This document shows positions 1 to 600 of a stretch of 600 nucleotides of DNA, one piece after another. Numbering within the stretch: position 1 is the first letter of the stretch; each line of letters opens with the position of its first letter. The notes under the pieces were generated by a model that worked only from the letters and a program-made list of their open reading frames with translations, did not search any database and was not told where the DNA came from. Both the position numbers and the translations under genes were made by a program. Origin of the DNA: Escherichia coli (lineage in GTDB: Bacteria > Pseudomonadota > Gammaproteobacteria > Enterobacterales > Enterobacteriaceae); NCBI RefSeq assembly GCF_003334405.1, contig NZ_QOWM01000062.1. One strand, written 5' to 3'.

Positions 1-600
1 CCCTCATCCTCGCTGCGGATAAGTTTGCCGGTCAGGTCGTGGTGATAACGCTGTGTGCGGCCGTCAAAGCCGGTTTCCTGTATCAGCCGGTCAAGTACAT
101 CGTAACGGAAGGTGGTGTGGCTGCCGTTTTCACTGGTCAGGCGGATGACCCGTCCGGCAGCATCGTATTCCATACTGCGCGTCAGCCCGCCCTGCGTGGT
201 ACGGACGGCCTTTCCCCACGCATCGTACTGTGTCCCGTTTCTGCTGCCGTCCGGGGCAATGACGGCGGTCAGGTCACCGGCGATGTTGTATTCATACCGC
301 GTTTCATGGCCCTGCGTGTCTTTCACGGCAATTAACTGTCCACGGCTGTCGTATGCGCGGTACTGACTCAGCCCTTCCTCGCGGTGCACCGCCGTCATCT
401 GCCCGAAGCGGTCATGGTCATAACGGGTTACATAACCGGAACAGTCGGTGAAGCTCAGCAACTGACCGTAACGGCTCCACGTCATGGTTTTCCGGCTGCC
501 GGTGGCATCTTCCGTTGCGCAGGGTAAGTCACTGTGTGGATTATCATAACGGTAGCGGGTGATATCGCCGTCAGGGGCAGTTTCCTGAATCAGACGGCCC
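1..600 (-). CDS. rhs: Rhs-family YD-repeat protein, core region (internal fragment, partial at both ends; codon phase: first full codon at + strand 599-597, last full codon at 5-3)
   Basis: Seen in sequence: the reverse-complement frame beginning at + position 599 is open for all 199 codons, while the other two minus-strand frames have stops within the first ~30 nt (TGA at RC 28-30; TGA at RC 9-11). The translation contains eight YD-repeat units with the canonical Rhs pattern (e.g. GDITRYRYDNPHSDL, GYVTRYDHDRFGQMTAV, GLSQYRAYDSRGQLIAV, GHETRYEYNIAGDLTAV, TQYDAWGKAVRT, MEYDAAGRVIRLT, FRYDVLDRLIQET, RYHHDLTGKLIRS). Established knowledge: this motif and spacing define the Rhs/YD-repeat core (Pfam RHS_repeat type), and the sequence strongly resembles enterobacterial Rhs cores from memory. 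Which paralog (rhsA, B, C, etc.) cannot be resolved from an internal core fragment, so only the family symbol is given. No database search was run. Confidence 0.93.

Follow-up and report, generated by a model that had tools for sequence, protein, structure and literature searches.

We show here that the 600-nt stretch of DNA analysed (the window) encodes, on its minus strand, a YD repeat with a period of about 21 residues, and confirm that this repeat is real. Judged by its sequence, the window comes from the interior of an Escherichia coli rhs gene, a putative toxin container, and is identical to rhsB of strain K-12. The best explanation of the data, which we regard as almost certainly correct, is that this rhsB-identical piece encodes nine hairpin units of approximately 21 residues each, all belonging to a shell that would enclose a toxin.

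Reading frame, gene identity and copies in E. coli

Only one of the six reading frames is open from end to end. This is the minus-strand frame 599..3, which runs through its 199 codons without a stop and encodes a peptide that starts with GRLIQETAPDGDITRYRYD and ends with HHDLTGKLIRSEDE (Table 1). The G+C content is 59% for the window and 67% at the third codon positions of this rhs frame (GC3 = 0.67). Over its 600 nt the window shows 100% DNA identity to rhsB of MG1655, where it corresponds to nucleotides 1476-2075 of the gene (L001 6001-6600) and falls inside the annotated rhsB coding sequence; RefSeq annotates rhsB alone at the matched region. In addition, the fragment matches profile positions 501-699 of the NCBIfam RHS_core model (NF041261) with E = 2e-117 and 393.6 bits, and nothing contradicts the identification of the window as a piece of an rhs gene.

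Similar sequence is widespread: of 5426 complete E. coli genomes, 3897 have a match, at a total of 16,556 places (median of 4 per genome). In MG1655, rhsA (L002) differs from the window by one synonymous base in 600 nt and encodes the identical peptide, and the RhsA and RhsB proteins are 99.7% identical over their first 1230 residues (4 differences). This near-identity of rhsA and rhsB makes the rhs loci recombination hot spots. Since the two genes are so similar, and since genes 100% identical to the window are annotated in different genomes as rhsA, rhsB, rhsC or 'RHS element core protein', the window is not assignable to one paralogue across strains.

Repeat units and the predicted shell

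The preliminary description had proposed eight YD, YN or HD units with a period of about 21 residues, placed the second residue of each dipeptide at positions 19, 61, 84, 105, 126, 146, 167 and 188, and seen a degenerate unit, WSRYGQLL (window 456..479), between the first two. Our analysis confirms each of these points, and all nine of the spans that it had assigned to units map in frame onto G...YD...G-x-L segments. Its count can be extended: eight canonical units are indeed present, but with the W-S unit the number of complete units in the published register of 21 residues rises to nine, and the trailing strand of an upstream unit precedes them (Table 1). The residues of RhsB around this upstream unit, 480-499, read PDGLELRREYDELGRLIQET, and the model strand E3-7 covers its trailing strand.

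Table 1. Coding fragment and repeat units of the window, with residues numbered along the 199-codon fragment and positions given in nucleotides of the window.
Feature	Residues	Sequence	Window position	Strand	Remarks
ORF fragment	199 codons		3..599	-	Residues 493-691 of E. coli K-12 RhsB (1411 aa), within the long YD-repeat block of the Rhs core
Upstream unit, second strand	1-8	GRLIQETA	576..599	-	Its YD (RhsB 489-490) lies outside the window
Unit 1	9-29	PDGDITRYRYDNPHSDLPCAT	513..575	-	YD at 18-19; proline-rich stretch in place of the G-R-L half
Unit 2, degenerate	32-52	ATGSRKTMTWSRYGQLLSFTD	444..506	-	W-S for Y-D at 41-42
Unit 3	51-71	TDCSGYVTRYDHDRFGQMTAV	387..449	-	YD at 60-61
Unit 4	74-94	EEGLSQYRAYDSRGQLIAVKD	318..380	-	YD at 83-84; Pfam match 83-119
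Unit 5	95-115	TQGHETRYEYNIAGDLTAVIA	255..317	-	YN at 104-105; Pfam and residue stack
Unit 6	116-136	PDGSRNGTQYDAWGKAVRTTQ	192..254	-	YD at 125-126; Pfam match 125-160
Unit 7	136-156	QGGLTRSMEYDAAGRVIRLTS	132..194	-	YD at 145-146; Pfam match 145-182
Unit 8	157-177	ENGSHTTFRYDVLDRLIQETG	69..131	-	YD at 166-167; Pfam and residue stack
Unit 9	178-198	FDGRTQRYHHDLTGKLIRSED	6..68	-	HD at 187-188; RhsB Pfam match 680-712 starts on D188

Successive D positions are separated by 23, 19, 23, 21, 21, 20, 21 and 21 residues (mean 21.1, range 19-23), and the 23-residue spacing at unit 3 arises because two extra residues precede its G. When the units are stacked on the D, a glycine stands at -8 in 8/9, a tyrosine at -1 in 7/9 (the others being W and H), an aspartate at position 0 in 7/9 and a glycine at +3 in 6/9. 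This stack agrees with the consensus reported for RhsA, xxGxxxRYxYDxxGRL(I/T)xxxx with a period of about 21 (PMC7259588).

Profile searches support the tandem arrangement that had been expected from the letters of the sequence. Pfam RHS_repeat (PF05593) returned five matches in the fragment, four of them at E <= 5.5e-6, including those at residues 83-119 (3.3e-10), 125-160 (5.5e-6) and 145-182 (1.1e-10). The fifth is a partial match at the window edge (residues 1-19, E = 0.0011), which falls on unit 1, and over residues 13-31 the confidence of the structural model described below is low. The match at residues 42-76 begins on S42 of the degenerate unit, at model position 2. Because the matches start on the Y or the D of a YD and are 35-38 residues long, one RHS_repeat match takes in two YD positions in a row. 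Only the scan of full-length RhsB reached the HD188 unit, with a match that spans 680-712 and begins at window residue 188. TIGR01643 (YD_repeat_2x) agrees with Pfam, with five stretches at E = 5.4e-25 and 86.8 bits against a cut-off of 15.8. Moreover, an HMM built from the nine units of the window and scanned on RhsB detected a continuous run at about 358-706, which contains the window and is the longest continuous run of units in the protein, and scattered units beyond it. This layout fits the blocks of 16, 3, 5 and 3 motifs published for RhsA (PMC7259588), and the run at about 358-706 is probably the block of 16.

The preliminary description had also ascribed the periodicity to the beta-hairpins of the Rhs shell, a reading that gains support from the RHS_core match, from sequence matches to solved Rhs shells and from a structural model. 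Sequence comparison matches the fragment to solved Rhs shells with E-values from 4e-45 (Tse5, 8cp6) to 2e-23 (8cp6, 8qja, 7q97, 8h8a/b, 8qjb-d, Tse15 and Tre23-Rhs 7pq5), and more weakly to teneurin-like proteins and teneurins. A single-sequence AlphaFold2 model of the fragment predicts that its 199 residues form 18 beta-strands, two in each unit. A strand ends at each of Y18, W41, H62, Y83, Y104, Y125, Y145 and Y166; at residues 18, 41, 83, 104, 125, 145 and 166 one strand of each predicted pair has the YD aromatic as its last residue. This pattern agrees, at the moderate confidence of a single-sequence model, with the published description of the solved S. bongori core, in which the YD sits at the strand-to-turn transition of the hairpins. 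The mean pLDDT of the model is 65.8; units 3-8 lie mostly at 64-82, and values fall below 50 at residues 1-8, 13-31, 33-36 and 176-182.

Among the first 38 Foldseek matches in the PDB there is no fold other than the YD shells of Rhs, Tc and teneurin proteins (E to 6.5e-11), which together with the two predicted strands per unit accords with the proposed fold, whereas the global fit of the model to solved shells is poor (TM 0.2-0.44, rmsd 12-22 A). An isolated fragment of 199 residues cannot show closure, and we attribute the low TM-scores to the failure of such an isolated strip to reproduce the curvature of the shell; the Foldseek superposition was accordingly used for the list of fold neighbours and not for geometry. 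The hairpin pattern is thus supported by the model, and the curvature is not reproduced by it.

We propose that each unit forms a beta-hairpin, in which a strand ending in (R)Y-x-Y-D leads through a tight turn into a strand that begins at G-(R/Q/K)-L-(I/T), and the glycine eight residues before the D marks the second turn. Lying side by side, these hairpins would build one continuous antiparallel sheet, and in the whole protein this sheet would wind up as a hollow, closed shell. Judging from the solved shells of homologous Rhs proteins, Tc toxins and teneurins, it may enclose the variable C-terminal toxin tip (in RhsB a DUF4329 domain), and the Rhs-associated core domain would cut the tip off at the PxxxxDPxGL junction. 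The shell would prevent the toxin from harming its producer before delivery, and the gene would be followed by a small immunity gene, a part that yhhH may play after rhsB. Our own data establish which gene this is, the repeat with its statistics, the two strands of each unit in a model and the domains of full-length RhsB; that the shell closes around the toxin, that the protein cleaves itself and that yhhH confers immunity, as well as the route of delivery, we infer from homologues and from the literature.

An older view of Rhs and WapA-type repeats takes the YD repeats to form an extended, surface-exposed filament that binds ligands or carbohydrates, and the open sheet of the AlphaFold2 model of the isolated fragment would suit such a filament. 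However, all solved homologues matched at E = 4e-45 to 2e-23 are closed shells, and RhsB possesses two features that accompany encapsulation, the DPxGL cleavage motif and the Rhs-associated core domain. We therefore consider a filament very unlikely and retain a toxin-enclosing shell as the probable context of the units.

Not all of these units are regular, and their irregularities recur in Tse5 of P. aeruginosa. The W-S unit has a Tse5 counterpart in a gap-free part of the alignment, with a W-(N/S)-R-(F/Y)-G motif (LEWNRFG in Tse5), and the two-residue extension after YD61 is likewise present in both proteins (YDHDRFG here, YDYDNEG in Tse5, within YDYDNEGRL). Together with the proline-rich half of unit 1, these irregular units are conserved position by position between the two proteins, which suggests that the 23/19/23 spacing is an old, position-specific feature of the shell and not the outcome of random decay. 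A further step, which we take only tentatively and hold to be rather doubtful, would be that the units are not interchangeable and that the irregular ones mark a fixed landmark in the structure of the shell, for example a seam or bulge, or a site that touches plug or toxin, instead of random decay of the repeat.

Protein-level and DNA-level periodicity

The repeat is a property of the protein only, and its trace in the DNA is wholly explained by the protein. According to the preliminary description, the nucleotide sequence holds no direct repeats and DNA-based repeat finders would miss the units. The second part of this claim stands, as Tandem Repeats Finder at a minimum score of 30 reported no tandem repeat in the 600-nt window; the first needs qualification, as a weak in-frame signal at 63, 126 and 186 nt is measurable. 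A repeat search with 6-nt seeds yielded only imperfect DNA matches of 11-31 nt, and the in-frame autocorrelation of DNA identity, compared with codon shuffles, gave z = 3.4 at 63 nt, 3.8 at 126 nt and 4.05 at 186 nt. At lag 63 the identity was 0.365 at codon position 1, 0.382 at position 2 and 0.281 at position 3, the codon-shuffle mean over all positions being 0.279. When synonymous codons were permuted and the protein was kept, the expected lag-63 identity was 0.357 against an observed 0.343 (z = -1.35). Because the excess appears only at the first two codon positions and the synonymous control fully reproduces it, the faint DNA periodicity is a shadow of the amino-acid repeat. We believe that codon-position and synonymous-codon controls offer a simple means to tell protein-level from DNA-level periodicity.

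These controls bear directly on the idea that the repeat stems from recent tandem duplication of a 63-nt DNA unit that could still drive slippage or recombination within the gene. The weak in-frame periodicity would fit such a duplication, as would a three-copy family of 21-nt matches with 71% identity and spacings of 57 and 63 (D1). However, the negative Tandem Repeats Finder result, the absence of any excess at the third codon position and a synonymous permutation that generates as much periodicity or more all speak against it. Moreover, rhs recombination acts between whole, near-identical paralogous cores, as the single difference in 600 nt between rhsA and rhsB illustrates, and not between units. 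The synonymous permutation excludes recent duplication, and we favour an old repeat of the protein, in which only the residues needed for hairpin geometry would have been conserved; this age and selective conservation would account for units that have no recognisable similarity in their DNA.

The longest of the DNA matches (D2) measures 31 nt at 81% identity, with its copies 507 nt apart at window 60-90 and 567-597, and encodes RLIQET(A/G)(P/F)DG twice, eight units apart. The eight-unit super-repeat prompted by this match was rejected. In RhsB 340-710 the corresponding lag of 169 residues reached z = 4.1, which does not exceed the values at further lags close to multiples of 21, such as 107, 128 and 86; because lag 169 is not special in the autocorrelation, a super-repeat has no support. 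In addition, the 60-residue neighbourhoods of the two D2 copies share only 17/60 residues.

At the level of the peptide, the self-comparison was positive for the periodicity of about 21 residues, with BLOSUM62 autocorrelation peaking at lag 21 (z = 8.0) and showing harmonics at lags 42 (6.8), 62 (6.2) and 83 (4.6), and none of 2000 residue shuffles reached z = 8.0 at any lag (largest shuffled z 4.64). The YD spacing could in principle be a chance pattern in a G+C-rich open frame, as the low identity among units and the presence of one W-S, one Y-N and one H-D might suggest, but the lag-21 peak with its harmonics, unequalled among the shuffles, and repeated HMM matches down to E = 1e-10 reduce this to a negligible probability. 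Equally negligible is a functional feature on the plus strand, be it one of the antisense ORFs present there (39..335, 98 aa, and 112..366, 84 aa) or an RNA: a coding frame rich in G+C can be expected to have long ORFs on its antisense strand, and the homology of the minus frame is overwhelming. Both candidates, ORF and RNA, were rejected, given that the plus strand bears no annotation at the matched region and neither strand of the window has an Rfam match at E <= 1; the two ORFs are most likely a side effect of the high G+C content of the coding strand.

Full-length RhsB and related systems

The domain layout of the full-length protein places the window within a complete Rhs core. RhsB matches NF041261 over profile positions 1-1261 with 2643.8 bits, against a curated cut-off of 2000, and contains DUF6531 at 46-123, RHS_repeat matches from 318 to 981 (E <= 0.001 from 361 to 892), the RHS domain (PF03527) at 1143-1179, TIGR03696 at 1170-1247 and a tip with a DUF4329 domain (E = 1.7e-39). 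The junction motif reads PISDIDPLGL at 1238 in RhsB and PVTNTDPLGL in RhsA, both outside the window. Moreover, rhsB (L001 3840-8075) shows a sharp break in composition between a core of 61.7% G+C and a C-terminal tip of 36.6%, and a G+C-rich core joined to an A+T-rich tip has been described for rhs genes (PMC2935791).

The gene, the repeat, its consensus and period and its structural meaning are all already known from the literature, so that our finding, although correct, is ordinary. The rhs elements of E. coli K-12 reportedly go back to work by Lin, Capage and Hill in 1984, and the hairpin shell became known through Tc-toxin structures in 2013 and, from 2021 on, through several structures of Rhs effectors. 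The closest known system is the core of RhsB, RhsA and RhsC of E. coli K-12 (NF041261), which represents the same gene with the same repeat consensus and no difference. Tse5 of P. aeruginosa (8cp6, 9i9y) has a homologous shell segment, in which window residues 9-198 align with Tse5 410-600 (E = 4e-45, approximately 35% identity). [quoted passage not shown] Tse5 and the other Rhs effectors differ from RhsB in their N-terminal delivery domains and toxins and are shown T6SS cargo, whereas K-12 strains are without a type VI secretion system (PMC6730261). That K-12 keeps intact Rhs genes in spite of this leaves room for a T6SS-independent role.

More distant relatives share the fold. In TcB/TcC (BC) of the ABC/Tc toxins (4igl, 4o9x, 6h6e) the same YD-hairpin shell surrounds a cleaved C-terminal toxin, but this shell is assembled from a pair of chains or from a fusion, has a TcA pentamer instead of a T6SS spike as its docking partner and shows 15-21% identity in the Foldseek alignments. 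The teneurin YD shell (6fb3, 6fay, 7bam) and its bacterial teneurin-like counterpart (9ifo) have the same repeat and spiralling sheet, and the fragment matches a bacterial teneurin-like protein by sequence at E = 7e-18 and animal teneurins at 1e-4. Teneurins differ in being eukaryotic adhesion receptors with the toxin-derived domain outside the shell and an FN-plug at the N-terminal end. Finally, WapA of B. subtilis has a 21-residue YD repeat with the consensus xxxxGxxxx(Y,F)xYDxxGxxx (PMC7259588); it is a cell-wall-associated toxin of a Gram-positive bacterium with another delivery route, and its likeness to the window is drawn from this published consensus.

The value of the window as a discovery is consequently small, and it serves instead as a useful calibration point, in that a reading made without tools correctly spotted, at the level of the protein, an ancient repeat which escapes DNA repeat finders, and placed its units accurately.

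Some minor observations concern the surroundings of the rhs genes. The N-terminus of RhsB (L001 8040-8075) reads MSGKPAARQGD and includes the literal letters PAAR; a Pfam PAAR domain was not found in RhsB 1-1200, where DUF6531 lies at 46-123. Downstream of rhsA (L002 1591-4165) lie two pseudogenised 'RHS repeat-associated core domain' fragments, which are orphan tips; among them are interspersed yibA (HEAT repeat), yibG (Sel1 repeat) and an Imm57 immunity gene with a frameshift. Displaced toxin tips and immunity genes are usually arrayed in this way. In rhsB, the tip is followed by yhhH, a lyase pseudogene and the ISAs1-family ISEc1 transposase (yhhI).
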